Of a stretch of 64,000 nucleotides of DNA, positions 31,741-55,220 are shown in pieces. Each line of letters begins with the position of its first letter. Position 1 is the stretch's first letter. Source of the DNA: Opitutales bacterium (GTDB lineage: Bacteria > Verrucomicrobiota > Verrucomicrobiia > Opitutales > JABSRG01). The stretch is from assembly GCA_028280845.1 (NCBI GenBank), contig JANQKZ010000041.1, positions 8,549 through 72,548 of the forward strand, read 5' to 3'. Made by a program: the position numbers and the translations under genes. A model generated the notes under the pieces. The model did no database searches. It saw only the letters and a list, made by a program, of their open reading frames with translations, and had not been told where the DNA came from.

Positions 31741-32616
31741 CTAAGTGGAGATCTCTACAGAATCAAGTTCCAGTTTTCGTTCCACGTGGACGACCACATC
31801 CATGGTCCGATTCGGGCTCCCCCGGTATGTGCCCTGAATTGGCCTGACATCATTGTAGTCCCTTCCGATACCGACTTTTACATACCGCTCGTCCACCAGC
31901 CGATTGTGGGTCGGATCCAGGCCCACCCAGCCAAAGCCGGGAACAAAAGTTTCCACCCAGGCATGCGACGCCCCCGCCGCCTCATTGTGTTCCGATTCCG
32001 GGGCCCAGAAATAGCCACTCACATAGCGGGCCGGGATATGAATCGCTCGCAGCAGCCCGATCATGATGTGGGCGTAGTCCTGACAGACCCCACGACGCAG
32101 GGCAAAAGCCTGCACCATGGGGGTGAACACCGTGGTCGCGTCCTTATCATACTTGAGCTCCTGGTAAACCCACTCCATGACGCCGAGCACACAGTCCCAC
32201 AAATCATCTCGGGTTTCTGATACATCAATCGCAACCCGCCATACCTCCGGCGAAACATCGATCGATGCGCTGTTGACCAGAAACTCATAATAATCGTCGT
32301 AGGCGGCCTCCTCTGGCAAACGTTTCCAGGAGAGCCCCACGGGGCCCTCCGGCAATGGATCAATTTTGAAAGTGCGGACCTCCGAAATCGCCCGAATCGA
32401 CAATTCCCGGTGCTCGTGGCTCACTTCAAATACGTTTACCGCGTTCTGGTAGAAATCACGGTATTCCGAATAAGCGACCCAGGGATCAATATAGAGTTGA
32501 AAGGAATCGCAGATCTGCCGCACATCCCCCACTGGCCGCATGCGGACTTCATTCACGCTATCAATGGCGTCCGTCTCGTAGGAATAATGAGTGGTATGGG
32601 TGACTCGAAGCTTCAT
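31741..32616 (-). CDS. transglutaminase-family protein (Bact_transglu_N + transglutaminase core)
   Basis: N-terminal HTT.Y.Y pattern. Cys-His-Asp core context (GVCQDYAHIMIGLLRAIHIPARYVSGY ... HAWVE ... DPTH). Confidence 0.85.
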   Translation of the reverse strand: MKLRVTHTTHYSYETDAIDSVNEVRMRPVGDVRQICDSFQLYIDPWVAYSEYRDFYQNAVNVFEVSHEHRELSIRAISEVRTFKIDPLPEGPVGLSWKRLPEEAAYDDYYEFLVNSASIDVSPEVWRVAIDVSETRDDLWDCVLGVMEWVYQELKYDKDATTVFTPMVQAFALRRGVCQDYAHIMIGLLRAIHIPARYVSGYFWAPESEHNEAAGASHAWVETFVPGFGWVGLDPTHNRLVDERYVKVGIGRDYNDVRPIQGTYRGSPNRTMDVVVHVERKLELDSVEIST

Positions 32617-32840
32617 CGGTCCGGCTTGGCACGTTGTCGGAATTGAAGACGCAAATGAATATGAAACATGGGCTCCCCCGATACACGGGGAACGTCATCC
32701 CCTACTAAGGGATACATCAGGCAGGACCGGACTGCCGGAGCAGCCAGTATTGGGTCGATTGAGCGTATCGATTTCAGAATGCATTTAGATGAACGGTTCC
32801 TTACAGCTTCCGCAACATGGAAGCTCCCGATTTATTGCTG

Positions 32841-33836
32841 CTATTGTTGTTGCTGGATTTCGGAGTTAAGGTCAATCGTCGGCAAAAACATGTATTCCTG
32901 AAAGATAGACGTTGAAATGGCATCCAGCCTCACGGTCGCCTCTACCAGGAATTCATGGAGCCCCTGGTTAATGATGTCATCAATTGTGCTATAGGACAGG
33001 TCGGACAACATCTTACCGCTCACCTTCTCCGCCTCGTTGGAGTACTGTCCTTCATGGGTCCCCGTCAGCCGGCGCAGATAGTGGTCGAGGGACTGCAGGC
33101 AATAGCGCAGGGACCGGGGGAAGGTCTCCTTCAGCAGCAGGAGTTCGGCGACCTTCGGTGAGTTGACTTCTGCCAGGTAAAGCCGGTGATAGGCTTCCAA
33201 CGCATTGCACGCTTTTAAAATGGATACCCATTGTGCGGTGTCGACCGCGCCCCCTACGTCGATCGGTCCCTGCGGCAGGAGCACGTGATACTTCAGGTCC
33301 AGGGTTCGGACGGTACCCAGCGCACGCTCCAGAAAACGTCCAAGTTGCATAAACTGGTAGCCATCTTCCTGGGGAAAGGTGGCATCCATCAGCCCCTGGA
33401 ATTGGACTGACGCATCCTGTATGTAGCTCAGCAGCTCGCTCAGCTCCTCATCCTCGTTGTCCTTTTTACTCAAGCCCTTCAACTCGTGGTAGGCCAGGTT
33501 GATGACCTCCCACAAGCCTGACGAAAGCTGGTCGCGCACCATATGGGCATTGGCCCGGCCGTTGGCGATACAACTGAAAATCGAGTGCTGGTTCCCGCGA
33601 TTGAAAGTGAGGTAATGCAGGACGTCCTCCGTCTTCGGGTCAGGATAGTGCGCTTCAAATTCATCGATCTCCCCGGAAACCCGCAGCAGGGGCTCCCATT
33701 GGCGCAAGTCACTTTCCATCCGGGTTTCGGTGTCGAGGGAACTTTGAAAATACTCACGCAGCAGGCGCGCGTTGTTGTCTGCCCGCTCAATATAGCGGCT
33801 TAACCAGAAGAGGGAGTCGGCAACTCTCGATAACAT
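32841..33836 (-). CDS. alpha-E domain protein (DUF403)
   Basis: Canonical N-terminus MLSRVADSLFWLSRYIERADNNARLL. All-helical 331-aa protein located between the ATP-grasp and transglutaminase genes. Confidence 0.85.
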   Translation of the reverse strand: MLSRVADSLFWLSRYIERADNNARLLREYFQSSLDTETRMESDLRQWEPLLRVSGEIDEFEAHYPDPKTEDVLHYLTFNRGNQHSIFSCIANGRANAHMVRDQLSSGLWEVINLAYHELKGLSKKDNEDEELSELLSYIQDASVQFQGLMDATFPQEDGYQFMQLGRFLERALGTVRTLDLKYHVLLPQGPIDVGGAVDTAQWVSILKACNALEAYHRLYLAEVNSPKVAELLLLKETFPRSLRYCLQSLDHYLRRLTGTHEGQYSNEAEKVSGKMLSDLSYSTIDDIINQGLHEFLVEATVRLDAISTSIFQEYMFLPTIDLNSEIQQQQ

Positions 33837-33846
33837 AAGGCGTGTT

Positions 33847-35280
33847 TTATTTTTTAAGAACCCATGTGTCCTTCACCCCGCCCCCCTGGGATGAATTCAC
33901 CACAATCGACCCCTTGCGCATAGCCACGCGGGTCAACCCACCGGGAACAATAGTGATGGACTCCCCGCTCAAGACATAGGGGCGCAGGTCGATATGTCGT
34001 CCTTCAAAAGCATCTTCCGCATAGGACGGGTGCCGGGACAGCGATATCATCGGCTGGGCGATGAAATTTCTCGGGTTAGCTTTGATCTTCTCCCGGTAAT
34101 TTTCAATTTCCTCGGCGCTGGCTTTTGGCCCGACCAGCATCCCGTAGCCGCCGGCCTCGTTGGCGGCCTTCACCACCAGGGATGGCAGATTGTCCATAAT
34201 GTATTGGTAGTCGTCCGACACCGAAGCCAAATAGGTGTCAACATTTCGGATCACAGGGTCCTGGTCGAGGTAATACCGGATCATGGCCGGCACATAATAA
34301 TAAACCACCTTGTCGTCGGCCACCCCCGTGCCAATGCTGTTCGCCAGGCTGACGTTGCCCGCGCGGTAGGCATTCACGAGACCCGGCACCCCCAGCACGG
34401 AATCCTTCCGGAAGACACTCGGATCAATAAAGTCGTCATCGATTCGCCGGTAGAGCACGTCCACCTTCTGGAGCCCCTGGGTGGTCCGCATGAAGACCTT
34501 GAAATCTCTCACCACCAGATCACGACCCTCCACGATTTCCACCCCCATGCTCCTGGCCAGGAAACAATGCTCAAAATAAGCACTGTTGTAGGAGCCCGGA
34601 GTCAGCACGGCCACGGTGGGTTGATCCATGCCATGCGGGGCCACATACTTGAGCATCTTCAACAACTCCTGGGGATAGGTGTCAACCGACCGCACATTGG
34701 CATTCTGTATCAGGCGGGGAAACGCCCGTTTCATCGCCAGGCGGTTCTCAATCATGTAGGATACCCCCGATGGGCAACGCCCATTATCCTCCAGGACAAA
34801 ATACTCTCCCCGGTCATCGCGGATCAGGTCCACCCCGCAAATATGCATGTAGATGTTCCGAGGCACATCAAAGTTCATAAACTCCCGCCGAAAGTGCTTC
34901 GCCGAAAAGACCACCGAGGCCGGGATCACCTTGTCCCGGATAATGTTCTGCTCATGATAGATGTCGTGCAGGAATAAATTCAGCGCCTGTATCCGTTGCT
35001 CCAAGCCCCGGCAGAGGTGAGCCCACTCATCCGCCGGAATGATTCGGGGCATCAGGTCGAAGGGCATGATGCGTTCCGTCCCTTCCTCATCGTCATAGAC
35101 CGTGAAAGTGATGCCCTTGCTCAGAAACAGACTGTCCAGCGCCTTTCGCTTGGTCTCAAACTCCTGCTTACCCAAGGCCAGGAAACGGTCCAGTACCAGC
35201 TGGTAATGCGGCCTCACCAACCCGTCACTTTGGAACATTTCATCGAAAAACCCATCGGTCTTATAGGAATTGGTAAACAT
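33847..35280 (-). CDS. circularly permuted type-2 ATP-grasp protein (DUF404/DUF407)
   Basis: 477-aa ORF with the family patterns I recall ([45 protein letters not shown]...E.GGYGM). It is the first gene of the conserved trio. Confidence 0.85.
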
Positions 35281-37202: not shown

Positions 37203-37370
37203 CTTCCTTCAACTTTCAACCTGCAACCAATCCCCACCAACCATCAAAAACGAAATCACTGCTCAGCCAATTCATCCTCAAGCGCCTGAATCCGTTTCTC
37301 CTGCTCAATAATATATAAGGTCAGCTCCTCAATCTTCTGCAGCAGCACTGCCTGACTCTCCCCGAGCGTC
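37203..37370. repeat. left copy of the island-bracketing direct repeat
   Basis: CTTCCTTCAACTTTCAACCTGCAACCAATCCCCACCAACCATCAAAAACGAAATCACTGCTCAGCC... matches 55221..55390. About nine of ten positions match over the first ~110 bp by hand alignment, and the match is weaker afterwards. It covers the 3' flank plus the last ~38 codons of the 37256..38194 gene. Confidence 0.8.
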
Positions 37371-38194
37371 ACCCCTTCAGCTTCCACTTCTTCAGCCGAG
37401 GGCACATCCGGCAAATGCCCATTCACCTCGATAAACTCCTCCACCTCATGGAGCGGCTTCAGCTCATACCCCGCCTCAAATACAAAATCCGACCAGCCCG
37501 TCTCCACAATCACTTCCTCCGCTCGGATTACCCCCTTCACGTCGAGCTGATAATCCGGGGTCTGTGTATTGATGCCGACATACCCGGTAGAGTCCATGAT
37601 GCGCATTCGCTCCGTTCCAGACGAACCCGAACTTCCGGTTTTGAAGTAGAGGCCGGTTTGGCCGGTTATGGCAAAAAAGCCATTTGCTGTCGTTCCATTT
37701 CCCACAAACCCGTCCATATTATTTACAAATGAATTTCCCGAGCTATCCGTCCTCATGTGGAGTCCACTTCCCGATGTATTGTGAAGAAGAATATTCTGCC
37801 CCAACACATCCAGTTCCATAGTGGGGTTTGCGTGACCGACTGCCAGTTTACCACTCGCCTTCAAGACCAGAAGAGGATGGTTCAATCCAGGATTTGGTAG
37901 AATGCTAAAGTCAACAGCTCTGTCCATAGCTCGAATACTTAAAGACCCATTGGCCAAAGACGATGCCCCGCCTGGATTTGCTGAAATAATAAATTCGAAG
38001 TGATTATTTTGGTTCCCACTCGAAGTTCGCTCTAGGGAAAAAATATTATCATGGGTCCCTGTCTTTATATGCAGGAGATCCTCCGGACTCGTCGTCCCTA
38101 TCCCCACATTCCCACTACTCGGGAACGTATTCGCTCCATTCAGGGCTACCGTGACTGCCCCAATCCATAACACAAACAGAATCGTTTTTCTCAT
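37256..38194 (-). CDS. secreted fibre-like protein, family member Pa (conserved C-terminal module)
   Basis: 312 aa with a signal-like N-terminus. Three G-x-V-G-I-x-T-x-x-P-x-x-x-L-x-V motifs. C-terminal module IRAEEVIVETGWSDFVFEAGYELKPLHEVEEFIEVNGHLPDVPSAEEVEAEGVTLGESQAVLLQKIEELTLYIIEQEKRIQALEDELAEQ, shared with the 49187..54873 array. Confidence 0.8.
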   Translation of the reverse strand: MRKTILFVLWIGAVTVALNGANTFPSSGNVGIGTTSPEDLLHIKTGTHDNIFSLERTSSGNQNNHFEFIISANPGGASSLANGSLSIRAMDRAVDFSILPNPGLNHPLLVLKASGKLAVGHANPTMELDVLGQNILLHNTSGSGLHMRTDSSGNSFVNNMDGFVGNGTTANGFFAITGQTGLYFKTGSSGSSGTERMRIMDSTGYVGINTQTPDYQLDVKGVIRAEEVIVETGWSDFVFEAGYELKPLHEVEEFIEVNGHLPDVPSAEEVEAEGVTLGESQAVLLQKIEELTLYIIEQEKRIQALEDELAEQ

Positions 38195-38589
38195 GTTTAC
38201 GCTCCTCCTTCGTGAGCTCCAGGCTTGTTATTTTTTTATTTTCCAAAATGACCGAATTCACTTCGGACAGGAATATTCAGCATATAAAACGGGTAGCCAA
38301 TGAACAACCAAAATCACGACCCTAGATCTGTTTTTCCGGGGGCTCACAGCAACTGAGAAAGACCGCAGTCGACGAGGCCAGAAGGGCATCGAGAGCTGAA
38401 CCGGGACCATGCTTCGAGGCGGGCTTGGCCTTGCGGTACTAGCGGTGATTTCAACCAAAAGCCGAATCCATGCAAACCCATGCAAAAGCGGTGCTGTTGA
38501 CCAAGGCATGAACGCTTCATCGGCCTGCTTACAGACCTTAGCCGAGGACCGACCCAACAAGGGAGTTGGTCACTGAGAAGCGAAGTAAC

Positions 38590-38955
38590 CTACCTGTCTC
38601 CCAGCTTCGCCTCCAATTCCTGAATTCGCTTTTCTTGTGCAATTAAGTGTAAGGTTAGCTCTTCTATCTTTTGGAGAAGTATAGCTTGGGTTTCCCCGAC
38701 GGTCACACCATCCGCCTCCACTTCTTCGGCCGAAGGCACATCCGGCAAATGGCCATTCTCCTGAATAAAGGTTTCCTCCGCTTCCAAAGGCAACAGATCG
38801 TAATCACGATCAAAGACAAAATCGGACCACCCCGATTCAACCACAATTTCGTCGGCCCGGATAGATCCATCCACCGACAGTTTATAAGCGGGATCGGGGG
38901 CAGTCGTCCCAATGCCAACGACCCCATCATCGGTTAGGGGGGCAAAAGGGGTCAA
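38590..38955 (-). pseudogene. N-terminally truncated member of the fibre-like family (C-terminal module only)
   Basis: The 121-codon ORF begins at a TTG that lies inside the left inverted repeat of the transposase element. The product is essentially only GVVGIGTTAPDPAYKLSVDGSIRADEIVVESGWSDFVFDRDYDLLPLE...LLQKIEELTLHLIAQEKRIQELE. There is no signal peptide or body. Confidence 0.7.
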
Positions 38956-39964
38956 ACGTAGATTTTAAATACCTCCTTACGGGTTCCACTTTTTTATGAG
39001 GTTGGTCACTCGGGAAGGGTGGCCCATATTCAGCCGATCAGCAATCCAGGGATTATTTGCTGTGGTTTTTGACCTCAGGATAAAAGCGATTCTGGATTTC
39101 CATTCCGCCCCTTTGGGTGAGTGAGCAAGGTCATTTTCGGTTTTTCTCAGAAGCTTCAATTCATCCACCACCAAGTTCTCCCATTTTGACTCATTCAACA
39201 CTTTTAGATCTACTCCTTCCCATTCCACATCTGGATTTTCCCTGGTTATTTTCTTTTGAAGAGCCTGCTTTTCATCGTTCGAGCCAATAAACCAACCCTG
39301 GACATATTGGCTGGCCTGCTTTTTCAACTCAGAAGACTCCATCTTCTCATAACCCTTCAAATGGTTCGCATACCGGCGCACTCCGGCCCGAGTGTCAGGA
39401 AACCCCAGCTGTGACAGGAAACCTCCACGGCATAATCCTCTTCGGATTGATTCCTTAAAAAACTTCGGATAACTCGATAGAGGATACTCTCTCAATTCGT
39501 TAACAGAGACCAATCCGGCCCGAACGGGGTTGAGGTGGATGTAATCCACTAATCCGGACAAACTCCCGTCCTCTCCAACAATAAGCGACTTATACCTCCC
39601 CTGGAAGACATGCCCCCGCTCATTCCTCAATCGGTTAAAACGGGTGGCAAAGGTACTTTGCAACCACCGCATTCCCGCCACCAGATTCGGTTCTGGAGTC
39701 TCCACCGCCAGATGGTAGTGATTACTCATAATGACGTAGGCATGCATCTGCCATCCACACCGCTCTACCGCCTCAAACAAGGCCTTCTCGAAGGATTGTC
39801 CCGTCTGTTCCTTCAGAAACAATTCCTTGCGGTAATTCCCACGACTGATCACGTGGTACACCGCCCCAGGATATTCGATGCGCTGTTTCCTTGGCACATC
39901 AAACACTCCAGGTCAGTCATATTTGAAGGTCAATATTTAAATTATACGTTTGACCCCTTATTCC
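38941..39964. mobile_element. about 1-kb element: Y1 (IS200/RAYT-like) transposase gene flanked by terminal inverted repeats
   Basis: Left AAGGGGTCAAACGTAGATTTTAAATA (38946..38971) matches the reverse complement of 39934..39959 (AAGGGGTCAAACGTATAATTTAAATA), 24 of 26 by hand. The match is loosely extendable to 38941 and 39964. Both repeats abut or overlap the ends of truncated flanking genes. Confidence 0.7.
38977..39906 (-). CDS. IS200-like/REP-associated tyrosine (Y1, HUH) transposase with a DnaA-C-like HTH tail
   Basis: 309 aa. YHVISRGN, HUH motif SNHYHLAV, GHVFQGRYKS, and the tyrosine-helix context VDYIHLNPVRAGLV. The C-terminal ~50 aa (KSRIAFILRSKTTANNPWIADRLNMGHPSRVTNLIKKW) resemble DnaA domain IV. 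Confidence 0.8.
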   Translation of the reverse strand: MFDVPRKQRIEYPGAVYHVISRGNYRKELFLKEQTGQSFEKALFEAVERCGWQMHAYVIMSNHYHLAVETPEPNLVAGMRWLQSTFATRFNRLRNERGHVFQGRYKSLIVGEDGSLSGLVDYIHLNPVRAGLVSVNELREYPLSSYPKFFKESIRRGLCRGGFLSQLGFPDTRAGVRRYANHLKGYEKMESSELKKQASQYVQGWFIGSNDEKQALQKKITRENPDVEWEGVDLKVLNESKWENLVVDELKLLRKTENDLAHSPKGAEWKSRIAFILRSKTTANNPWIADRLNMGHPSRVTNLIKKWNP

Positions 39965-40374
39965 TCTCTAAATAATCCCATAAATTGATTGGATCATTCC
40001 CCACGAATTGATAGAGGTTTATTCCGCCAGCTTCTCCCAATGGATCCCGGTTGAGGAACCGTCCAAATTCTGGAGCGTAGAAACGATACCCGAAGTAATG
40101 CAGCCCGGACTCGCGGTCCACCATCTTCGTGCTGAAGCGGATGGGGTCATGGGCGGCCAAGGTGCTACTTTCCGATTCCCGGATCAGCTCCCCGTAGGGA
40201 CCGTATTAATAAACAGCCTCGACGGTGAAGACGCCCAGGCTCTCCTTGAGCAGGCTGGTCACATTGCCATTTCCATCGTAGGTCGGATAGTACCGCCCCT
40301 GCCCGGCAATTTGCCGCCAACACCGCCTGCGGTCTGGTAGCCTCCATTCAGGTCCAGGCCCCAGCCGAATTTAC
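39942..40374 (-). pseudogene. decayed orphan Rhs core-end fragment (no toxin tip)
   Basis: DNA is homologous to 42598..43019 of the main rhs gene. It carries an in-frame TAA where the main gene has GAA (VY*YGPYGEL vs VYEYGPYGEL) and a 13-bp deletion (GGCAATTTGCCGCC vs GGCAATTTCCATCCAGAGCATGCCGCC). The reading frame ends 8 codons after WDYL, inside the transposase-element repeat. Confidence 0.85.
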
Positions 40375-40455
40375 CCTGTCAATTATCAAGATATGATCCT
40401 TCAATCGCCCCTGTGAGTAATGTTAATCATTCTACGTTTGCACCTTTTCAAATAT

Positions 40456-40995
40456 TCAGATCAATTTCAAATACTGGAGCCGACCGTCCTCAAAAATACC
40501 TTTGTAACCCATAGTCTCCACATCTCTCATCTCGGAAGTCCGTGCAAAATAGTCTTGGATGATTGTTCTTTTTCTTCGTTCAGTAGTAAAAACGATGTAG
40601 GGCTCAATTGCATTTTGAAAGTCGCAACCCATCCTAAGACAACAATCTTCCGCTATCGAAAGACTAACCAAAACATCTCTCCAATCTAAAATGTCACGGT
40701 CAACACAAAGCGCCCATAAATTATCATTGAGAAAGCGAGTGTTGTTACTTTCAACAGCATATACTGCCATTCTCAATGAAAAGATAGCCAAATTGTAGGC
40801 GTCACCACTTGTAAGTTTACCGAAAACATCAATAACCTCAGTAAGATTTAAATTAAATCCGTTTGGAAATAATTCAGAAAATCTCAACTCTCCATCGATC
40901 GGAAATTTCACTTCACCGCCAAGAGGATAATCAAAATCTGGGGGGCAGTTTTCCAGAAATGCATAAACTTTTTGTTTAACAAACTCTGATTTCAT
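40456..40995 (-). CDS. hypothetical cytoplasmic protein, candidate (orphan) immunity protein
   Basis: 179-aa ORF in a visibly AT-rich stretch between the rhs-proximal small gene and the orphan Rhs fragment. No signal peptide and no family recognised. Confidence 0.4.
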   Translation of the reverse strand: MKSEFVKQKVYAFLENCPPDFDYPLGGEVKFPIDGELRFSELFPNGFNLNLTEVIDVFGKLTSGDAYNLAIFSLRMAVYAVESNNTRFLNDNLWALCVDRDILDWRDVLVSLSIAEDCCLRMGCDFQNAIEPYIVFTTERRKRTIIQDYFARTSEMRDVETMGYKGIFEDGRLQYLKLI

Positions 40996-41160
40996 ATCAA
41001 CTCACGGCGCAATCAAAACTCCTCCACGAGAAATCACTCTCTGTTTCCCTCTAAGGTATTGTCCCATTTCTGTACCAACGCGCCCATTAACTGGCGATTA
41101 GAACAGTCAAGGAACCGTTGCCTAAAGGTTTCGGCCCTGATGGATGACCTCTAAAATTGC

Positions 41161-41529
41161 CTACAATACGAAGACAAGCGGCAATTTAAGTTTATGCGCT
41201 CTCTCGCAAAGAGCACTCAGAGAATTTATAAAATCAACCACATCTGAGTCGAGATCCAGAGAAGCAAATTCTGATCTAATTACTTTCCCTGCCTTATTCA
41301 GGTTTCTGCCTACTTCCTCTTGTTCATATTCGTCAACAAGAGCTCCGCATATCTGGTTAAAACGCCTGAAGACTCCAGCATCCCAAATTCGGTAAAACAA
41401 ATCATCGTCGTCTAATTTAATACGCTCAACATCTAGTCCTTGTATAACATCGTCATCTCGTATCCTCTTTAGGGCGCCCTCACTTAGAGGGAGTACGATA
41501 CTTCTTCTATATAGCTCTGACGTAAACAT
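41161..41529 (-). CDS. small acidic protein, candidate cognate immunity protein of the Rhs toxin
   Basis: An ATG at 41529 (MFTSELYRR...) lies 7 nt after the rhs stop codon (41537..39). 122 aa, acidic, no signal peptide, AT-rich. The track ORF start at 41586 would overlap rhs by 50 nt. Confidence 0.55.
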   Translation of the reverse strand: MFTSELYRRSIVLPLSEGALKRIRDDDVIQGLDVERIKLDDDDLFYRIWDAGVFRRFNQICGALVDEYEQEEVGRNLNKAGKVIRSEFASLDLDSDVVDFINSLSALCERAHKLKLPLVFVL

Positions 41530-41536
41530 AAATCTG

Positions 41537-44500
41537 TTAATATATAATAAAGTGCGACAACTCTTGTCGACTATTAGGTATGACATTACCCATCATATCC
41601 AGATATTTACCATTCTTTCCTCCGATTTTATTCGGTTGAAAGATTCTGAAGTACCCACCATCCAAGTCCTCGACGATCTGTCGACCTGTTTTAGCATTCT
41701 CATATATTCGCTTATTTGACTTTGTTACCCAAGTGGTTATTTCACCACCATCTCCAAGATGACGTGTAATTGCTTTGGTAATATCAGCCTTCATCCAATT
41801 ATGCCCCCACTTCAGTCTTCTGGCTAGCCCAGGGGCGATCTCGCCTGCCGCCTTAGCGCCTCCTTTTTTAGCTGTAAAAATCACGCCAAGCTTGGCTGTC
41901 CCTATTGCTCCAAGTTTTCCTGCCCCCTTTACTACAGCTGTCGCGGCAGCTTTCACCAAAAAGACATCGGTGACCGCAATAGCGGAATTTACTATTCCCC
42001 AGCCCCATCTTCCATTTTGGAAATCGTTAACGGCGGCACGACCCGAGCCCCAGACAGGAATTAAGCCTTCCCAGAAACCTGGCGCACCTACACCTTTTTC
42101 AATAGCTGCAAAATTGTCCTCTACCAAGTCATCCCAATAGCCGGACCTAAAGTCTTTGGCTACCTGGCTATACATGTCTGCCTCGTGGGACATTTCATCG
42201 ATAAGGTAATCATCGGCTACATTTCCACCCCACGCAAATTGATCACTCCTAAAGCCATCCACGGTGTAAGAGTTCTGCCAGGGAGCAAAATTATTTACGT
42301 AAAGGTGTCCAGTACTAGGGGTGATCCATTCAATTACCTCAAATGTATCTAAAGTTTGTATCCCGGAAGTACTGCCCTTATTACTGCTCGAGGTTCCCAC
42401 ATTGGCGTAAACCACGAACGGATCCAAGGTTTGGATGGGCCCCTCACTTTGCTCAAAAATCTGATAATGTTTTCCGTACTCGCCCCGCATTAAGTCCTCA
42501 ACTGTGATCTCACTTTGAGGTAGGGTACTGTCACCAGAATAGTAATTTTGACTGGATAACCCAGGGCCCATATCCAGCATCAAGGTTTGAAGGGTAAGGC
42601 CCAGGTAATCCCAGTTATTTATCGGATCATTCCCGGCAAACCGGTAAAGATTCGAGCCACCGGCTTCTCCCAGTGGATCCCGGTTAAGGAACCGTCCAAA
42701 TTCAGGAGCGTAGAAGCGATACCCGAAGTAATGTAGCCCAGACTCGCGGTCCACCATCTTGGTGCTGAAGCGAATCGGATCATGGGCGGCCAAGGTGCTA
42801 CTTTCCGATTCCCGGATCAGCTCCCCGTAGGGACCGTATTCATAAACGGCCTCGACGGTGAAGACCCCTAGGCTCTCCTTCAACAGGCTGGTCACATTGC
42901 CATTGCCATCGTAGGTCGGATAGTACCGTCCCTGCCCGGCAATTTCCATCCAGAGCATGCCGCCGACACCGCCCGCGGTCTGGTAGCCCCCGTTCAGGTC
43001 CAGGCCCCAGCCGAATTTACGGACGATGGAGGAGCCATTGGTCTCCATGACGAGGTTCCACCCTTCGTAGACGTATTTGCGGGTCTTCGCGGGAGCTCCG
43101 GTGAAAGTGTTGGAGGCGTTCCAAACCTGCTTTCCTACCCGACGGCCCATGTAGTCGTAGGTGAACTGGATGGACACTCCATTGTTCACCGTAGCACTCC
43201 ACATCCGATAGATACGGTTCTCTCCATCATAAATGAAATTCCAGAGACTATCTTGAGTAGGATTCCCATTATCATCGAAATTCACCAACTCCGTATCATT
43301 TCTGCTAGCGGCATTTCGGTTTTCTGAAATAAGGAGATCAGCCCCACCTGCCCCTGCCCCAGCGAGCCCTGCATATAAGGTAATCGCATTATTGGCAGCA
43401 CTGGTGCTGCTGGTCTCATATCTATGGTAGAAATGTCCGCCATTCATTGTGGCGGCATCCTTTGTGCTTCCTGCCGTTTCCCCTACAAATACCTGGATTG
43501 GGCGGGATGGTGCACTGGTGGACTCGTCGTAGTTTACAAAGCCTTCTGTATGGATACTCGTATCGGGAAAACGGGTCGTAATTTCATTTGCCTGATTTAA
43601 TGCAGGACCGATGGTGGTATGGCTGGTATCCCTTGAATAGGATATTCTATTTCCTGCGTTGTCATACCCATATGTAAATGTCCTTCCCGGGACCGTGACT
43701 TTGCCCCCTGTATTTAAATCGCCGCTGTAGTAGGTAATGAACTGTTCCAATTCATTGCGATCCGTGTAACTGAAGGTTTTCAGCAGGCCGTCCTCCGGGT
43801 AATTGGCGTAGGACTGGCCCGTCATGAGCTCCTTGGACCGACGGCCCAGGAGATCATGTACATACTCTGATTTATGAAACGGACTCGCGCTGGCCGTCCC
43901 CAGGTGGGCGGAAATGGATTTGAGGAGGTTCCGGTAGTTGTCGTAGTTGTGGACCCGGTCTATATCATGGGGGCCGTCGATTTTTCGCACCAGCCCGTTG
44001 GGCCGCATGTTGTAGGTGAAGGTATAGCCATCGATGACCGCCCGGTCCAGCGTCCCATTATCCGCTCGGTAGTAAAAATAATTACTCAGCTCCGTATCCC
44101 CGCCCTTCTGTACATAATATCCCTGGTATCGGTAAGAGGAATCGTATTGGTGACGGATGGTTACTGAGTCTCCCGTATAATAGCTTCCCAGGGTTTCCGT
44201 GATGAGCTGCCCGTGCGTCAGGTCATAGTAGTGCGTTCGGGATCCGATTGCATCCACGACGCTGGATATGTTTCCCAGGCGGTTGTAATTGTAGTTGATA
44301 TTGGTCGTCGTCGGGTCGGCAGCCCCTCCCGATTGGAAATACTGTATTTCGTTCATCGACCCATCCTTCGAATAATAGGAATAGGTCGTATAATTCCCCT
44401 CCGGGTGGGTCCGTCGGATGAGCTGGTTCTGCGCATTGTAGAGGTAGGCGGTTGTTTTGCTTTTTCCGTCGACCTTGCTGTTAAGTAACCCCGAAGGCAC

Positions 44501-47500
44501 ATCATAATTCCAGCTTACCGTTTGAATATTGGACTCCGATCCGGGCCAACTGGAAGATGACCAAACGGAAGAAGTGCCACCAAAGGTGTGCATCTTTAAT
44601 AACTCTCCAAACACACTATATTCGTAACGGACAGGATTGGGCACATCTCCCCATATTTTTTCCAGTTCCCCTCCGTAGGTGTAATCAAAATAGGTCCGTT
44701 TGGATAAGGCGTTCTGGGTATAATCGATCAAACCGGTATTGGCATAAAAATACTTCTCCAGGCTGATCTCGGTCCCCGAATCATCCCTGGTCTTTACCTC
44801 GGTAAGTCGGGCCTTGGTCGAGTCATATATGTATTTCGTCCAGACACTGCGGTTATCCAACCCCTCGGCGGCGTTCACAGATCCGTCGTTATCAGTTTGA
44901 TCCGCCTCCGTCAACCTCCCCAAGCCATCGTAGCCGTAGACCGTAAAGGCGCCTGTCGATAGGGCCGACCTCCATAATAATCCGTTAATCAGGGTTCCGC
45001 TATCCTTTGCACTGTTGGCGTATTCCGTGAGCTCGGTTGTCAGGGTCAGTGGTTTATTGGCCCCATTACTGGTCGAGGTCACCTTAGAGGTCTGTTCCAA
45101 TACGCCGTTCAGGCCTTTGTATTTAGTCTCAAAAACAACGCCCCCGGAATAGGTAAGACGGGTCTCCCGGCTGCTGGTAATCAGCTTGCTCGTGGAATTA
45201 TTTTCCCGGTGATAGGTGCGGTATTTCGTGATCGCCCACCAGTCCGAGCTCACCTCCTCAAAGAAGGTGGCGTCTCTCTCCAATATCCGGTCCTGGTTCA
45301 GGGTGAGCGCATTATTCCCATCCAGGTCGAGATAGGACTGCTTCAACGCTCCAATCTCATAATAAGTAAAGCGGGTATCATTTTGCCCCGGAGTGGATAT
45401 CTTCAGGAGCTGTCCGGCTCCGACCTGGTTGTCTCCAATATATTCGTAGGTCGTGGTGATATCCCCGCTGGAATTCGTGTGGTTCGGTGTGACCTCCTTC
45501 GTAACCCGGCCCAGCCAGTCACGCGTGGTTTCAATTTTTCGAGTGGTGCTGCCACCAATGAATTGAGTAGCCACCTCACCCAAACTGGTTACAGAATAAT
45601 CGAATTCCTGGTCCACAATGGGATTCCAGTGAGGATCCGCAGCCGGGGCTCCAATCGAAGACCTACCGCCAATCTGATAATCTATTCGGCCATCATTGTA
45701 AAATTTGGTTACGAAGAAATTCGCCAGGGGGGTGTAGGAAGCTCCATTATCAAGAAGGTACTCGGTCCGCAGTTGGCCCCGGTAGCCATCCACCACGTCC
45801 CAACTGTAGGCAATACCCGTCCCATCCGGTTTCGTTTCCTCACGAAGGCGACCGCCCAGGTCGTATTCCCAGGATTCGGTTATCGACTCTCCGGATCCGC
45901 TGACCACTTTGTCGGTGGCATGCCCCATGGCATCGTAGGTCAGGGTCGTGACAATGTCGTTATGAGAGTAGCCGGATATCCCGCTGAACCCTTTCTTGGT
46001 TATGGTTCCAGGACGGCCCAGGTTGTCGTACGATGCATATTCGGTTCTTACTCCGGTTTCATCCACGGCATAATCCAGGAGTCCGTTTACATAGCCGAGC
46101 TCTACGGATTGCCCCTTCGAGTTGGTGGCCGTGGCGAGACGGTTTCCATTCTCGTAGGTAAAGGTGCTGGAAGATACTTCGGCAAAATTGGAATCGGTAA
46201 GGGTTCCGGATCCTGTTCCCCGATACACATAAGTGGCCCGTGCCACAATATTGCCTGCAACATCCCTTTCAACCCGCTCCATAGTGGATTGCTTGGGGAT
46301 TAAGTAAATATCCTCAACGTCACGGTCCGGATAGCCTCCGGTCGGGTCGAATCGGGTCATCTGGATTGCGCCGGAGACAGAGTTGCTGACCCCATTAAAG
46401 GAATACTCCACCCAATTACTTCCACTTTGCTCATGATAAAACGACTTCCGGGTATTGTCCGGGTAGGTAATCGAGATCAAGAGCCCCTCGAAATCGTTTC
46501 TGGGGGTCTGGATCGGCTCATAGGATTTAATGATCGTTTCCAGGTAGTCATTGGCTCCCGAGCTGTAATACTCCCGCTTGGTCGTAGTCAGGATTTGCTT
46601 GGAATTGAATGAACCTACGCCGTTATAAGAAAAGGTCTTTTTACTCAGGGTGGTAGACCCCACTTTGGTTAAAATTTGTGTAGGATACTCACGATAATAT
46701 GCAGGCCCCACACCGGATATCTGGTTGTCCCCCACATAGTAGAATGAAGTCACTTTGCTGGAAGCACTGGCTTGCGAGGGATGTGTTTGGGTCGATTTCC
46801 AGGGCTCATAGGTCGTTTTCACCAAGCCGAAGGAAAAGATATCGTTATCGTATTCGAATTTCTTCCAACCCCCTTCCGGTTTCAGGTAGGACTCCAGGCG
46901 GCGGTAGGATTCCTTATTGCTTGAATTCGTGTAGTAATAGTAAAGCCCGGTATACCGCACCCCGTCGGGGTCAGGCCTGGACACCCGCATTTCCTCTTCA
47001 CCTCCGATAACATCATATTCCTTCTCTTCCTTGAAATGAGTCGTCGTTCCATCGGTAATCTCAATCACATCCAGGTGGGTCCCGACCACCCCACTCCCAT
47101 TTCTGGTCCGGGTCTCCACGTAGTCCCAATTATAGGAAGCCCCATTGTAAGCGCCCCGCTTCAGTGTCCAAACCGGCCCCGTCGCGTTATAGGTCACATG
47201 GTAGGTTTGCCCATACCCGCCTTTTGACTTTCTGATCTGGAACTGGTTGTTAGCCGGTTTCTCAATCAGATACTCATAATAATAATCATTCAGGTCGGCA
47301 GCATGGATGGTAAACAGGCCGCTTCCCGACCAACTCGAATTTTCCAGGTCAGCCCTGTTATAAAATCGGATTTTATAACCATCCAGTGCAGGAGAAGCAT
47401 ACTCATCTCTAATATCCACCAAAAGGGATGGGGTCACAATTTGGCGCAGAACGCCTGAATTATGGTGCACATAAACGCCCACCACCGGCGAATTGGAGTA

Positions 47501-48091
47501 CTTCAATAAGCTGGGCGAGTAGATGCTCGCACTGAGGTTTTCCTCATGGATGGACAATTCACCAACCGGTTTTCCATTCGGCAAATACCCAAGCCCCACA
47601 CTCCAGTGAACACTGCTTAGAGCGAAACCGAGATCACTCCCTGCACCCCCACCATAATTGTCTTTGGGTAAAACGACCACAACCACTTCCTCATTGACTG
47701 GAATACTCCCCGCGGTCCCCGTAGCCTCCGCAGTCAGGACGGATGCGCCATCCAGATAGATTTGATACCCGGGAGGCGCATAGAGAAATACTGTGTTTCC
47801 GGTACAAAACTCAGATGAGAGCGTCATCACATATTCTTTCCCGAGTTCGATGTCCGTAATCTCCTCACTGGAGTATTCTGGAGCGCCGTTGACCCCATAC
47901 ACCGTGGGTCCCGCCGTTCCGAGATTGGCCGAAAACTCGGCGATGTCGTTTTGCCCATCCCCGGCATCATTTCCCATCGTGACATATAGCCCGATTGGAA
48001 CCGAAATCGGATTCTCAATGGACGCGCCCAGCAGCCCCGTTACTCCAACCACCAGAAAGGTGGAAATGATTCGTCCCCATGAATAGGTCAT
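41537..48091 (-). CDS. Rhs/YD-repeat polymorphic toxin with an N-terminal Sec-type signal and a 352-aa variable C-terminal tip
   Basis: 2184 aa. Signal-like N-terminus (IISTFLVVGVTGLLGAS). Dozens of YD repeats (YDAMGH, YDLGGRL, YDNLGR, YDGLGRL...). Core end PIRFSTKMVDRESGLHYFGYRFYAPEFGRFLNRDPLGEAGGSNLYRFAGNDPINNWDYLGL, then an unrelated lower-GC tail. Confidence 0.95.
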   Translation of the reverse strand: MTYSWGRIISTFLVVGVTGLLGASIENPISVPIGLYVTMGNDAGDGQNDIAEFSANLGTAGPTVYGVNGAPEYSSEEITDIELGKEYVMTLSSEFCTGNTVFLYAPPGYQIYLDGASVLTAEATGTAGSIPVNEEVVVVVLPKDNYGGGAGSDLGFALSSVHWSVGLGYLPNGKPVGELSIHEENLSASIYSPSLLKYSNSPVVGVYVHHNSGVLRQIVTPSLLVDIRDEYASPALDGYKIRFYNRADLENSSWSGSGLFTIHAADLNDYYYEYLIEKPANNQFQIRKSKGGYGQTYHVTYNATGPVWTLKRGAYNGASYNWDYVETRTRNGSGVVGTHLDVIEITDGTTTHFKEEKEYDVIGGEEEMRVSRPDPDGVRYTGLYYYYTNSSNKESYRRLESYLKPEGGWKKFEYDNDIFSFGLVKTTYEPWKSTQTHPSQASASSKVTSFYYVGDNQISGVGPAYYREYPTQILTKVGSTTLSKKTFSYNGVGSFNSKQILTTTKREYYSSGANDYLETIIKSYEPIQTPRNDFEGLLISITYPDNTRKSFYHEQSGSNWVEYSFNGVSNSVSGAIQMTRFDPTGGYPDRDVEDIYLIPKQSTMERVERDVAGNIVARATYVYRGTGSGTLTDSNFAEVSSSTFTYENGNRLATATNSKGQSVELGYVNGLLDYAVDETGVRTEYASYDNLGRPGTITKKGFSGISGYSHNDIVTTLTYDAMGHATDKVVSGSGESITESWEYDLGGRLREETKPDGTGIAYSWDVVDGYRGQLRTEYLLDNGASYTPLANFFVTKFYNDGRIDYQIGGRSSIGAPAADPHWNPIVDQEFDYSVTSLGEVATQFIGGSTTRKIETTRDWLGRVTKEVTPNHTNSSGDITTTYEYIGDNQVGAGQLLKISTPGQNDTRFTYYEIGALKQSYLDLDGNNALTLNQDRILERDATFFEEVSSDWWAITKYRTYHRENNSTSKLITSSRETRLTYSGGVVFETKYKGLNGVLEQTSKVTSTSNGANKPLTLTTELTEYANSAKDSGTLINGLLWRSALSTGAFTVYGYDGLGRLTEADQTDNDGSVNAAEGLDNRSVWTKYIYDSTKARLTEVKTRDDSGTEISLEKYFYANTGLIDYTQNALSKRTYFDYTYGGELEKIWGDVPNPVRYEYSVFGELLKMHTFGGTSSVWSSSSWPGSESNIQTVSWNYDVPSGLLNSKVDGKSKTTAYLYNAQNQLIRRTHPEGNYTTYSYYSKDGSMNEIQYFQSGGAADPTTTNINYNYNRLGNISSVVDAIGSRTHYYDLTHGQLITETLGSYYTGDSVTIRHQYDSSYRYQGYYVQKGGDTELSNYFYYRADNGTLDRAVIDGYTFTYNMRPNGLVRKIDGPHDIDRVHNYDNYRNLLKSISAHLGTASASPFHKSEYVHDLLGRRSKELMTGQSYANYPEDGLLKTFSYTDRNELEQFITYYSGDLNTGGKVTVPGRTFTYGYDNAGNRISYSRDTSHTTIGPALNQANEITTRFPDTSIHTEGFVNYDESTSAPSRPIQVFVGETAGSTKDAATMNGGHFYHRYETSSTSAANNAITLYAGLAGAGAGGADLLISENRNAASRNDTELVNFDDNGNPTQDSLWNFIYDGENRIYRMWSATVNNGVSIQFTYDYMGRRVGKQVWNASNTFTGAPAKTRKYVYEGWNLVMETNGSSIVRKFGWGLDLNGGYQTAGGVGGMLWMEIAGQGRYYPTYDGNGNVTSLLKESLGVFTVEAVYEYGPYGELIRESESSTLAAHDPIRFSTKMVDRESGLHYFGYRFYAPEFGRFLNRDPLGEAGGSNLYRFAGNDPINNWDYLGLTLQTLMLDMGPGLSSQNYYSGDSTLPQSEITVEDLMRGEYGKHYQIFEQSEGPIQTLDPFVVYANVGTSSSNKGSTSGIQTLDTFEVIEWITPSTGHLYVNNFAPWQNSYTVDGFRSDQFAWGGNVADDYLIDEMSHEADMYSQVAKDFRSGYWDDLVEDNFAAIEKGVGAPGFWEGLIPVWGSGRAAVNDFQNGRWGWGIVNSAIAVTDVFLVKAAATAVVKGAGKLGAIGTAKLGVIFTAKKGGAKAAGEIAPGLARRLKWGHNWMKADITKAITRHLGDGGEITTWVTKSNKRIYENAKTGRQIVEDLDGGYFRIFQPNKIGGKNGKYLDMMGNVIPNSRQELSHFIIY

Positions 48092-49186: not shown

Positions 49187-50149
49187 CTATGGAGTGAGCG
49201 TGTTCAACCGGGCCTCCAGCTCGGCATTGTGGTGTTTCAGTTCGGAAATTTCCTCCTGCTGTTGAATGAGGTAGAGCGTCAGTTCTTCCACCTTCTGCAG
49301 CAGCATCGCCTGGGTTTCCCCAACCGATGCTCCTTTGGCTTGAACCTCCTCAGCGTCCTTCACCCCTGGGAGTCGCTTTTCCTTTTCGATGTGCTCCGCC
49401 ACCTCCTCCAGGGGCATGAGCTCATAGTCCTCCTCAAAGACAAAGTCCGCCCAGTTGGATTCGACTATTATCTCTTTGGCGCGGGCTGTGCCATTGATGT
49501 CTAAATCATAAGAGGGGGTGTAGGTCCCTAAGCCTACCTTGCCGTCACCCTTAATGACCAAAGAATAATCGTGGGCTCCTTCATAATCCGTTATAAAACT
49601 AAATGCCCTATGGGCCGAATTGCCCTGTTCGGCCCGAAAGACAAAATTACCATTATTAGCTTCATCCTGAATCGAACGGAAAATTACATTGTTGTCATCC
49701 ACACCAATCTCCAGGGATTGATTGGAATCTCCCAAACGGGTGATATAAAAATTTTTTGTCGCTGTGTAGGAGTTGAAGTAAGCACTCCCCTCAACATGGA
49801 GTTTACCATTTGGAGAGTAGCTCCCTATCCCGACATCTCCATTCGGCATCAGAATCAGGCCGTTCACCCAGATCCCAGCAGAATCATCCCTACGGATAAA
49901 TTTCAATTGCCCATTGTTGTGGTGCTCAGCAATCCAATAGTCGGAAGGGTCAATAGAATCCGAGCTATTGAACCATTCAAGACGAGTATAAGAGGAATCA
50001 TGAATCCGAATATCTCCTCGGACATCTAAGGTTTCCCCAGGGCTGGTAGTCCCAATGCCAACATTTCCCGATGATGGGAAGGTGTTTTGCCCCCAGGCGA
50101 GAGACAAAGAAGAAAGGGCGCCTAGAAATAAATAGCATGTTTTGATCAT
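49187..50149 (-). CDS. secreted fibre-like protein, family member P6
   Basis: 320 aa with a signal peptide. N-terminal NTFPSSGNVGIGTTSP is identical to Pa. Conserved C-terminal module (ARAKEIIVESNWADFVFEEDYELMPLEEVAEHIEKEKRLPGVKDAEEVQAKGASVGETQAMLLQKVEELTLY) plus a coiled-coil tail. Confidence 0.8.
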   Translation of the reverse strand: MIKTCYLFLGALSSLSLAWGQNTFPSSGNVGIGTTSPGETLDVRGDIRIHDSSYTRLEWFNSSDSIDPSDYWIAEHHNNGQLKFIRRDDSAGIWVNGLILMPNGDVGIGSYSPNGKLHVEGSAYFNSYTATKNFYITRLGDSNQSLEIGVDDNNVIFRSIQDEANNGNFVFRAEQGNSAHRAFSFITDYEGAHDYSLVIKGDGKVGLGTYTPSYDLDINGTARAKEIIVESNWADFVFEEDYELMPLEEVAEHIEKEKRLPGVKDAEEVQAKGASVGETQAMLLQKVEELTLYLIQQQEEISELKHHNAELEARLNTLTP

Positions 50150-50997
50150 GGGTTGCTCCTCAAACTTCGATTCTCTTCACGGAGTGATTTTACCTCTTCG
50201 TTCAATTCAATGACATACAGTGTCAGCTCCTCCACCTTTTGCAGCAGCATCGCCTGGGTCTCCCCGACCGATGCTCCTTCGGCTTGGATCTCCTCAGCCG
50301 ACCTCACGCCAGGGAGGCGTTTTTCCCTCTCGATGTGCTCCGCCACCTCCTCCAGGGGCATCAGCTCATAATCCTCCTCAAAGACAAAGTCCGCCCAGTT
50401 GGACTCCACAATGATTTCCTTGGCCCGAGCAGTGCCATTTACATCCAACTTATGTATGGGAGAATTCGTCCCTATCCCAATTAAACCATCTCGTTGAACT
50501 GTCATTATGGTTAAGCTGTCATAACCCCCAGTAGATTTAGCGGCTTGGACGCGTATTTCCTCTTCAACTTCATGGTACTCAAAGCGCATCCCCTTCTCAT
50601 TCCATTCAGAGACAAGGGCCAGGTTGGGCCTTGTATTTTTTAACACGAGGTCAACCGAGGGGTTTGGAATTCCGATTCCTAACTTCTCCTTCAGATAAAG
50701 ATTTCCAGAGGAAAATAATTGGAAATATACAGTGCCCGAATGATAAAATCGCATCGACCCCTGGTAACTATCCAAACCCCAATCAACATACGGTGAGGGC
50801 GAAGAGAAATGAATTTCACCACCTTCGTAGACTGTGTTTTGGGATCTTAGCACTATCCTGCCATCCGTGGTATAAAAGGAATTGCTTACATCCAGTGCCC
50901 CAGTGACATCTACGTCCACAAAGGTATTGCCCCAGGACAAGCAGACGCCAAGCGGGCTGCTTAAGAATAACAGAACAAGGTATACTTTATTGGTCAT
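50146..50997 (-). CDS. secreted fibre-like protein, family member P5
   Basis: 283 aa with a signal peptide and a divergent body. The C-terminal module is identical to P4 over ~70 aa. ATGA overlap with P6. Confidence 0.8.
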   Translation of the reverse strand: MTNKVYLVLLFLSSPLGVCLSWGNTFVDVDVTGALDVSNSFYTTDGRIVLRSQNTVYEGGEIHFSSPSPYVDWGLDSYQGSMRFYHSGTVYFQLFSSGNLYLKEKLGIGIPNPSVDLVLKNTRPNLALVSEWNEKGMRFEYHEVEEEIRVQAAKSTGGYDSLTIMTVQRDGLIGIGTNSPIHKLDVNGTARAKEIIVESNWADFVFEEDYELMPLEEVAEHIEREKRLPGVRSAEEIQAEGASVGETQAMLLQKVEELTLYVIELNEEVKSLREENRSLRSNP

Positions 50998-51895
50998 GAT
51001 TCTCTAAACGACTGAGCCGTTTCTCCAGCTGTTGAATTTGTCGGTCCTTTTCGATTAAATGGAGTGTCAACTCCTCCACCTTTTGCAGCAGCATCGCCTG
51101 GGTCTCCCCTACCGATGCTCCTTCGGCTTGGATCTCCTCAGCAGACCTCACGCCAGGCAGGCGTTTCTCCCTTTCGATGTGCTCCGCCACCTCCTCCAAG
51201 GGCATGAGCTCATAGTCCTCCTCAAAGACAAAGTCCGCCCAGTTGGACTCCACGATGATTTCCTTGGCCCGGGCGGTACCATCCACGTCTAGCTCGTAGG
51301 CAGGGGCATGGGTCCCGACTCCTACCTTCCCGTCCTTCTTAACGACAAATCGTGGGTAGTGCCAGGTGGGATCTGTCAATACACTGAAATCCGCAGCATG
51401 CCCAGCCGCACGAAGCGTTAATGACCGATTATTTAATGTCTGAACCCCTGAGGGGCTGGAAGTAATCAAAAGCTCGAAGCGGTTGGCTTGCGAGCCCTCC
51501 AAGCGCTCGATGGAAAACAAGTCATTGTAATTAGGAGAGGCTATATGTAGGCGATCCTGGGGAACCGTAATTCCAACCCCCAAATACCCCAGCCGGCGTA
51601 AAACTATCCTGGTTTGATCCGACCCCGGGGTTTCCGACTCAAAAAACAAATCACCACTTTGGTTTTCATTCATCCAAATCCACCAATCATTACCACTTGC
51701 GTTATTCCTAAAACGCAGTCCAGGAGGATTCACGCCTGTGCCCTGCCCAATTAAATTAAAAGCATCATATATATTGTTTGGAATATCCAGTTCCCCATAA
51801 AGGCTATCTGACGCTGCATACGAGGATTTGAAAAACCCGATTAGAGAAAACAAAAGAATAACATGCTTAATTTTCACGACTAGCCTCCAACTCAT
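50987..51895 (-). CDS. secreted fibre-like protein, family member P4
   Basis: 302 aa with a signal peptide. The body is homologous to the Pa central block (FSIERLEGSQANRFELLITSSP..SLTLRAAGHAADFSVL). Conserved C-terminal module. Overlaps P5 by 11 nt. Confidence 0.8.
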   Translation of the reverse strand: MSWRLVVKIKHVILLFSLIGFFKSSYAASDSLYGELDIPNNIYDAFNLIGQGTGVNPPGLRFRNNASGNDWWIWMNENQSGDLFFESETPGSDQTRIVLRRLGYLGVGITVPQDRLHIASPNYNDLFSIERLEGSQANRFELLITSSPSGVQTLNNRSLTLRAAGHAADFSVLTDPTWHYPRFVVKKDGKVGVGTHAPAYELDVDGTARAKEIIVESNWADFVFEEDYELMPLEEVAEHIEREKRLPGVRSAEEIQAEGASVGETQAMLLQKVEELTLHLIEKDRQIQQLEKRLSRLENHDQ

Positions 51896-52943: not shown

Positions 52944-52944
52944 C

Positions 52945-53847: not shown

Positions 53848-53856
53848 GCGAATTCC

Positions 53857-54873: not shown

Positions 54874-54929
54874 AAATCTACTGTTGAAACTAAAAATGCA
54901 GTATCAGGCCCAGAGTTAAAGAAAAAATA

Positions 54930-54945
54930 ATTCACAATCGTGAAT
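54930..54945. promoter_or_regulatory. candidate operator palindrome upstream of the paralog array
   Basis: ATTCAC-AATC-GTGAAT, 57-72 nt upstream of the P1 start in an AT-rich region. Three further TTCAC direct copies lie at 54996, 55003 and 55022, around an A10 run. Confidence 0.3.
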
Positions 54946-55220
54946 GAAATTAGATGAACTAATGAAAATCCTCTTATCCATGAAAGACTTAGAGGTTCAC
55001 GTTTCACAAAAAAAAAATCATTTCACTAATAGGCCTCATAAGTTTCATACCTAGGCGGGCCGAATACCGAAGGAGTTGGAAATGAACCTATTCCGCTTGA
55101 AATCGAAGGATCCCATACTCGCAACCGTCTGTTTTCCTTTTAGGCTCTTCCCTATGTCTTCTGGCAGTTAGGAGAGGCAATAAAATGTTACCAAAGGACG
55201 ACCACTTCCCCTTCAACCTG

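Follow-up and report, generated by a model that had tools for sequence, protein, structure and literature searches.

A probable TIRtron and its dispersed terminal repeats in the Opitutales

A stretch of 64,000 nucleotides on contig JANQKZ010000041.1 of an Opitutales bacterium (hereafter the window) contains a gene for a Y1 transposase that lies between inverted repeats and, beyond these, between two truncated genes. This arrangement raises the question of which kind of element is present and whether the repeats are its ends. The initial annotation regarded it as a REPtron-like or otherwise atypical RAYT unit. In our reading, positions 38934-39971 (about 1.04 kb) probably form a TIRtron, i.e., one TIRYT gene bracketed by terminal inverted repeats (TIRs). 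The unit is a new member of a kind that has been described before but is experimentally uncharacterised, and is to be distinguished from both the classical REPtrons and the IS200/IS605 elements. The earlier notion of a unit with its own repeats is borne out by the conservation of the flanking repeat and by gene-less repeat pairs that occur genome-wide in relatives, while its class is changed from REPtron to TIRtron.

The flanking repeats and the encoded protein

An inverted repeat with agreement at 24 of 26 positions had been reported on both sides of the gene. Direct reading of the sequence confirms this for 38946-38971 (AAGGGGTCAAACGTAGATTTTAAATA) and the reverse complement of 39934-39959, and a repeat search lengthens the arm pair outward to 38934-38971 and 39934-39971, i.e., to 38 nt at 84%. 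The arm on the 3' side of the gene (38934..38971) comprises an A-run and the core AAAAGGGGTCAAACG at 38944-38958, with an outer TTAGGGGGGC box at 38934-38943. On the 5' side (39934..39971), the reverse complement of the arm reads TTAGAGAGGAATAAGGGGTCAAACGTATAATTTAAATA, and both ends carry a TTAG(G/A)G(G/A)GG box outside the core. A single arm shows no significant folding, be it the 3'-side arm, which folds no better than its shuffled versions (z = +0.9), or the 5'-side arm (z = -0.9). Subterminal hairpins were sought by folding in both arms, and none was found. A chance origin of the repeat was considered and rejected: the runner-up inverted repeat of the same 2.1-kb region is weaker (23 nt at 74%), only the two arms match the 15-mer AAGGGGTCAAACGTA perfectly within the 64 kb, and the core flanks related genes elsewhere. 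Between the gene-proximal repeat and the start codon lies a short leader (39898..39933, minus strand), in which a -35-like TTGACC at 39933-39928 directly adjoins the repeat; a promoter consensus scan picked another, weak site instead.

The gene itself is encoded on the minus strand at 38977..39897 and yields a protein of 306 aa from a GTG at 39897. The mechanical open reading frame (ORF) extends to 39906 and has 309 aa, which was the length first given. The GTG at 39897 is the likely start, because the homologues begin with MPRKQRIEY and an identical database protein (P0001) also has 306 aa. The HYH and Y-helix motifs that had been recognised in the protein stand: in an alignment of 26 homologues, both the HUH motif (H63-Y64-H65) and the Tyr motif (D-Y122-IHLNPV) are invariant, and so is the pair S144-S145 after the Tyr helix. 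The alignment has a mean column identity of 72% and 61 invariant columns, many of them within the last 60 positions. More than 7,400 homologous matches of about 304 aa were obtained; those listed with a named source come from Opitutales or other Verrucomicrobiota and share 57-70% identity. The plasmid collection PLSDB gave only distant matches, mostly to the N-terminal domain, with less than 45% identity and none covering 80%.

Pfam assigns the protein to Y1_Tnp (E = 7.6e-13), and the sole match of a PDB profile search is the E. coli TnpA-REP (4er8), whose HUH and Tyr motifs line up with those of the protein. The same structure is the best fold match of the AlphaFold model (pLDDT 79.7; E = 8.6e-8, TMt 0.71), with the transposases of ISDra2, IS200 and IS608 ranked below it (about 2e-4). 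For the model of the C-terminal part (residues 216-309, the last 94 residues; pLDDT 83), the eight best PDB folds are all DnaA DNA-binding domains. Superposition with those of M. tuberculosis (3pvp) and E. coli (1j1v) gives a TM value of 0.58-0.60 and a root-mean-square deviation of 2.1-2.2 Å over 68-70 columns. The protein is composed of a RAYT-like Y1 HUH/Tyr nuclease domain (residues about 1-150), a helical linker, and a C-terminal helix-turn-helix that, as judged from the fold, resembles domain IV of DnaA.

Related elements and gene-less repeats in other genomes

The repeat is not confined to the window. Further copies are present in related genomes, and in the Opitutales relatives the conserved ends of these copies coincide with the repeats described above. 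We examined twelve distinct full-length relatives from the Opitutales, including Coraliomargarita parva, Puniceicoccus vermicola, Lentimonas, Thalassobacterium and several metagenome-assembled genomes (MAGs). The 11-nt core GGGGTCAAACG is found, inverted, at both ends of most of them, and in most cases it is located about 45-60 bp upstream of the start and 0-10 bp past the stop. GGGGGCA variants occur in the Lentimonas locus and at two 3' ends, and one relative (L056) has a 3' end without a recognisable arm. Most full-length ends also carry a YTRGGG-type box 9-15 nt outside the core, which speaks for extended arms of 38 bp and for an element that spans about 38934-39971. A TTGACC-like -35 hexamer adjoins the gene-proximal arm in eight of the twelve loci; the other four have TTGACT, TTGCCA, TTGAGT and ATTACA at this place.

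The surroundings of these units are unrelated. In the five loci with genes called, the neighbours are a ribonucleotide reductase, Rhs, a sulfatase together with a beta-lactamase, a scramblase, and TraX. Duplicate copies exist as well. In one MAG (GCA_038744685.1; L131, 1691-7692), two family members that both have the complete pair of arms are separated by 3 kb, and their proteins share 83% identity. This locus holds three Y1_Tnp genes within 6 kb, the third of which (331 aa) has different ends, and a gene-less repeat pair at 9033-9127. In C. parva (L001, 3727-3935), a tandem partial copy that consists of an arm and the first ~50 codons adjoins the left arm of the full element, and is a nested insertion or an aborted duplication. 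Scaffold_103 of Thalassobacterium sedimentorum (L122; 1,015 bp) is exactly one element from repeat to repeat. It looks like a scaffold collapsed by the assembler, and the full element is therefore probably multicopy in that isolate.

The repeat arms far outnumber the gene. Species-representative genomes were scanned with AAGGGGTCAAACGYANAWTNTAA, for which about one chance match is expected by our own estimate from its information content. At least 118 stretches were recovered, and among the matches listed about 115 are from Verrucomicrobiota, mostly Opitutales. Outside this phylum, the matches are, in the order listed, a Luminiphilus MAG with three direct copies (L034), a Rothia MAG (L124) and a Chlorobiales MAG on a 1-kb contig (L012); these are likely mis-binned contigs or chance matches. 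Most arms are paired in the order plus then minus, and the distances between partners group at about 50-300 bp and at about 1,000 bp. The gene-less inverted pairs, 55-290 bp long, occur many times per genome. The forms range from perfect hairpins of 55-60 bp (-32 to -34 kcal/mol, z = -13 to -14) and gene-less miniature elements of 90-140 bp to miniature elements of about 243 bp, some with gene remnants, and full units of about 1,000 bp with the gene present. Some of the 243-bp copies keep codons 266-306 (the last 30-40 codons) of the gene and are therefore internal-deletion derivatives. In four genomes, repeat cores and full genes were counted at ratios of 29:0, 29:0, 31:1 and 20:0, which are lower bounds from the fetched loci.

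The ends of one miniature family, of 136 bp, were defined in an alignment of seven copies and one divergent relative. The seven copies, from three genomes, have 11-13 nt beyond the core in common on each side and then diverge, and no direct repeat indicative of a target-site duplication is seen in this alignment. Two related genomes have the flank TGGTGAAGGATATCATTGCCTGAA in common, beside repeat pairs of 60 bp (L013, 1244-1303) and 96 bp (L110, 5114-5209), which judging by this flank is apparently an orthologous site that holds different forms of the element.

Class of the element

RAYT-like genes with long TIRs were named TIRtrons, and their proteins TIRYT, by Di Nocera, De Gregorio & Rocco (2013, BMC Genomics 14:522). 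A majority of the members, but not all, carry the motif GGGGWSAS in their repeats, and some of the repeats constitute families of moderate abundance, often in dimeric form (PMC3733652). Most TIRYTs were later placed in subclass 2.1 of TnpAY1 by Quentin, Siguier, Chandler & Fichant (2018, BMC Genomics 19:475), a subclass that was present in about 15% of the strains in their survey. It is distinguished by a helix-turn-helix tail (Bac_DnaA_C, HTH_23 or HTH_28-like) and a conserved serine motif; its repeat is unlike the DnaA box, and no REP-like sequences were reported near its genes (PMC6006769). A full-text literature search found the terms TIRtron and TIRYT in no further papers.

The unit in the window agrees with the TIRtrons in its RAYT-like HUH/Tyr gene, in long TIRs other than GTAG REPs and in similar distances of the repeats from the coding sequence, and its repeat motif resembles GGGGWSAS. 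As in some members, the repeat belongs to a dispersed family, which is seen here in related genomes. It differs in its core, GGGGTCAA, where the last base is A instead of S. Neither the Opitutales as host clade nor a clade-wide 11-nt core was described in 2013, and internal-deletion derivatives with gene remnants are documented here. With TnpAY1 subclass 2.1 (2.1.2) it shares a protein that is long and TnpA-REP-like, a Ser motif that follows the Tyr helix (here S144-S145), a Bac_DnaA_C-like C-terminal helix-turn-helix (here by fold only) and a repeat unlike the DnaA box, whereas the genome-wide dispersal of the flanking repeat is at variance with the survey of 2018. Placement in subclass 2.1 appears appropriate on the grounds of architecture and of the link between this subclass and the TIRYTs drawn by its authors, rather than of their hidden Markov models or tree. 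The gene-less miniatures, which keep both TIRs and in part derive from an autonomous element by internal deletion, also resemble the miniature inverted-repeat transposable elements of DDE-type insertion sequences, but differ in that their presumed transposase belongs to the HUH tyrosine enzymes and that they show no target duplication.

A classical REPtron would be a domesticated single-copy RAYT gene flanked by REPs or REPINs, in which each GTAG-tagged palindrome is recognised as a hairpin (Nunvar 2010; Bertels & Rainey 2011, PMC3116915; Ton-Hoang 2012, PMC3333891; Messing 2012, PMC3479197, PDB 4er8). Such an element would account for TnpA-REP being the closest solved nuclease fold and REP_Tyr_transpos the top NCBIfam family, for a gene located between inverted copies of a repeat that also forms REPIN-like, gene-less hairpin doublets across genomes and far outnumbers the gene, and for the GTAG in the left arm. 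However, the single arms are neither palindromic nor folded, and GTAG is not a conserved feature: CGTAGA alternates with CGCAAA across the family, and about half of the copies read CGCAAAAT. This is why we use the label TIRtron/TIRYT and not REPtron. Furthermore, the protein is twice as long as a RAYT and has an additional DNA-binding domain, its NCBIfam score is under the equivalog cut-off, and full-length copies are multicopy in some genomes, while in several others there is one gene among many repeat loci. The literature itself sets such units apart as TIRtrons (PMC3733652), and we consider a REPtron improbable.

An ordinary IS200/IS605 insertion sequence, with subterminal hairpins and insertion 3' of a fixed tetranucleotide, is even less likely and can practically be dismissed. 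The Y1_Tnp assignment, the HUH/Tyr core with its fold matches to the TnpA proteins of ISDra2, IS608 and IS200, the lack of a target duplication and ends that extend beyond the recognised structure are all features that the unit shares with the 'peel and paste' elements IS608 and ISDra2. The structure of its ends already contradicts this explanation, as there is no subterminal hairpin at either end but long TIRs instead. In addition, tnpB is missing, the NCBIfam model transpos_IS200 (NF033573) gives 23.9 bits vs a cut-off of 55, and in structure the protein matches TnpA-REP far better than it does the transposases of insertion sequences (8.6e-8 vs about 2e-4). It could also be argued that the gene is an immobile host gene, with the repeats as operator or terminator sites and with neighbours that decayed independently in a junkyard downstream of the Rhs gene. 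The single copy in 64 kb, the strong constraint on the protein (72% mean column identity), the -35-like box next to the repeat and the failure to find an empty site would all fit. But the neighbours differ in each genome checked, gene-less repeat pairs and internal-deletion derivatives exist, as do 1-kb scaffolds of the collapsed type and duplicates that are in tandem or close by, and both truncated genes in the window end within about 10-20 nt of the repeats, so that an immobile gene is very unlikely.

A number of observations weigh against the assignment as a TIRtron with a DnaA-like tail, or against parts of it. The best NCBIfam family is REP_Tyr_transpos (NF047646), at 75.3 bits below its equivalog cut-off of 80, and the core in the window fits GGGGWSAS at seven of eight positions, the last base being A and not C or G. 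The DnaA fold matches have probabilities of 0.92-0.98, yet weak E-values of 0.5-1.9. Pfam did not detect Bac_DnaA_C in the whole protein or in either of two C-terminal pieces (94 and 174 residues), the C-terminal alignment retrieved nothing in a profile search of the PDB, and hhalign against a manually entered sequence of E. coli DnaA domain IV was not significant, albeit with the helix-turn-helix in the expected register. The DnaA-like tail proposed in the initial annotation is therefore backed by the predicted fold, with weak E-values, and not by sequence. The 64-kb window contains just two arms and one degenerate third. As to an empty site, the exact proteins of two nearby genes, a 179-aa ORF and a 312-aa fibre gene, are found in only one other assembly (SRR20820735), where the arrangement is the same. 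Concerning exact termini and target preference, a G-run lies outside 35% of the ends (12.6% background) and TAG[GA]G outside 5.4% (1.1% background); since both are enriched but not universal, we claim no target rule. Finally, binding, cleavage sites and mobility are deduced by analogy for all TIRYTs.

Junctions, neighbouring genes and a possible mode of action

Both genes next to the TIRtron are remnants. On the 3' side of the transposase gene lies a fibre-like paralogue (38590..38933, minus strand), of which a C-terminal module of about 110 aa is left. In a tblastn search, residues 204-312 of the 312-aa gene at 37256..38194 match 38925->38593 with 66% identity, and homology at the DNA level spans 38862->38619. 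The other side is occupied by the 3' end of an orphan Rhs core (39972..40374, minus strand), a pseudogene that has lost 13 bp and whose frame is broken. At 40374->39973, it has 87% nucleotide identity to the main Rhs gene at 41537..48091 (residues 1692-1830), and it ends at the WDYL after which the full gene proceeds to the toxin tip: WDYL is followed by ERNKGSNV and a stop, while the full gene continues with GLTLQ. In both remnants, the homology stops within about 10-20 nt of the repeats.

The initial annotation proposed that the repeats supply the start and stop of these neighbours. A TTG at 38955-38953 (minus strand), the 'start' of the ORF 38590..38955 (minus strand), indeed lies inside the left arm, and the ORF 39942..40160 (minus strand) has its TAA stop in the right arm. 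The seven last codons plus stop assigned to the latter hold for the 38-bp arm, whereas the 26-bp arm contains five codons plus the stop. This 'supply' is trivial: the start and stop are incidental by-products of mechanical ORF calling across the junctions, and the Rhs piece is a pseudogene in any case. Nothing suggests that either flanking fragment is expressed. For annotation, both flanking 'genes' should be read as remnants, and their start and stop codons as junction artefacts.

Two truncated genes that are unrelated cannot be brought together by a simple Y1 insertion. The most economical history, and the most likely origin of the junction, is an insertion with a subsequent deletion next to it, or else a recombination between two copies of the element. 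The geometry would fit a deletion, caused by the element, in which the toxin tip and an immunity gene were lost and the fibre gene was deprived of its 5' part, and such an event is plausible. A degenerate solo repeat arm, ATTCTACGTTTGCACCTTTT at 40429..40448, lies between the 179-aa ORF and the Rhs fragment, in the orientation of the 39934-39971 arm, so that the fragment sits between two arms of the same orientation. It matches the right arm at 15 of 19 positions, contains a three-mismatch match of the 15-mer AAGGGGTCAAACGTA at 40433-40447 (~2 such matches are expected by chance per 64 kb), and includes a stretch, ATTCTACGTTTG, identical to the repeat consensus of other genomes. The solo arm may be a relic of an older copy nearby, with a chance match as the alternative. 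A tblastn search of the window found no second copy of the gene, and the region 38000-41000 contains no known RNA families.

An Rhs neighbourhood is also seen in P. vermicola (L002, 1-3940). As in the window, the related element there comes immediately after an Rhs/YD-shell gene and a small ORF. The Rhs protein of the window has no tblastn match in that locus, and the common neighbourhood is therefore not homologous DNA. This suggests that regions downstream of Rhs genes have been settled repeatedly, or that insertions are tolerated there. Two small ORFs at 40456-41586 (minus strand), with 141 aa (overlapping the Rhs stop) and 179 aa, have no Pfam or NCBIfam match and are presumably immunity or orphan-immunity genes of the Rhs locus. 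At 49187-55390 (minus strand), a tandem array contains at least seven paralogues of the fibre-like gene 37256..38194, which have the C-terminal module of ~110 aa in common and vary in their N-terminal parts. Neither Pfam nor NCBIfam assigns this family, apart from a sub-threshold Pesticin match. Upstream of the fibre gene, at 31741-35280 (minus strand), lies a trio of CP_ATPgrasp, Alpha-E and transglutaminase genes, with Pfam labels obtained via a matching Logan contig.

The TnpA proteins of IS608 and ISDra2, as well as the E. coli TnpA-REP, have been shown to cut and rejoin single-stranded DNA via a 5'-phosphotyrosine intermediate (also summarised in PMC6006769). By analogy with these enzymes, the HUH/Tyr domain of the TIRYT would cut and rejoin one strand about 11-15 nt outside the core, again through a 5'-phosphotyrosine. 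The repeats would act in cis as the ends of the element, and the helix-turn-helix would read the core either on duplex DNA or on the hairpin stem that is formed by paired arms. In this manner, the protein could move the gene-less repeat pairs in trans, and occasionally itself. The -35-like TTGACC that adjoins the gene-proximal repeat, presumably a promoter element, would moreover allow for autoregulation.

It is a tentative possibility, which we rate as somewhat less than even, that TIRYTs find their ends by means of the helix-turn-helix on the GGGGTCAAACG duplex or hairpin stem, rather than by hairpin shape and guide bases, with cleavage ~11-15 nt outside. The repeat pairs of the Opitutales would then be a REPIN-like, long-lived and largely vertical replicator population. 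If true, end recognition by TIRYTs would be unlike that of every characterised Y1 enzyme, and the Verrucomicrobiota would harbour a replicator population of a sort not reported for subclass 2.1. TIRYTs are a large class, and the Opitutales family provides comparative evidence that ties genes of subclass 2.1 type to dispersed hairpin repeats. With an 11-nt core retained across genera, perfect hairpins, internal-deletion miniatures and defined full ends, it is therefore a natural test set for the question of whether a DnaA-like helix-turn-helix directs an HUH nuclease to the ends of its element.

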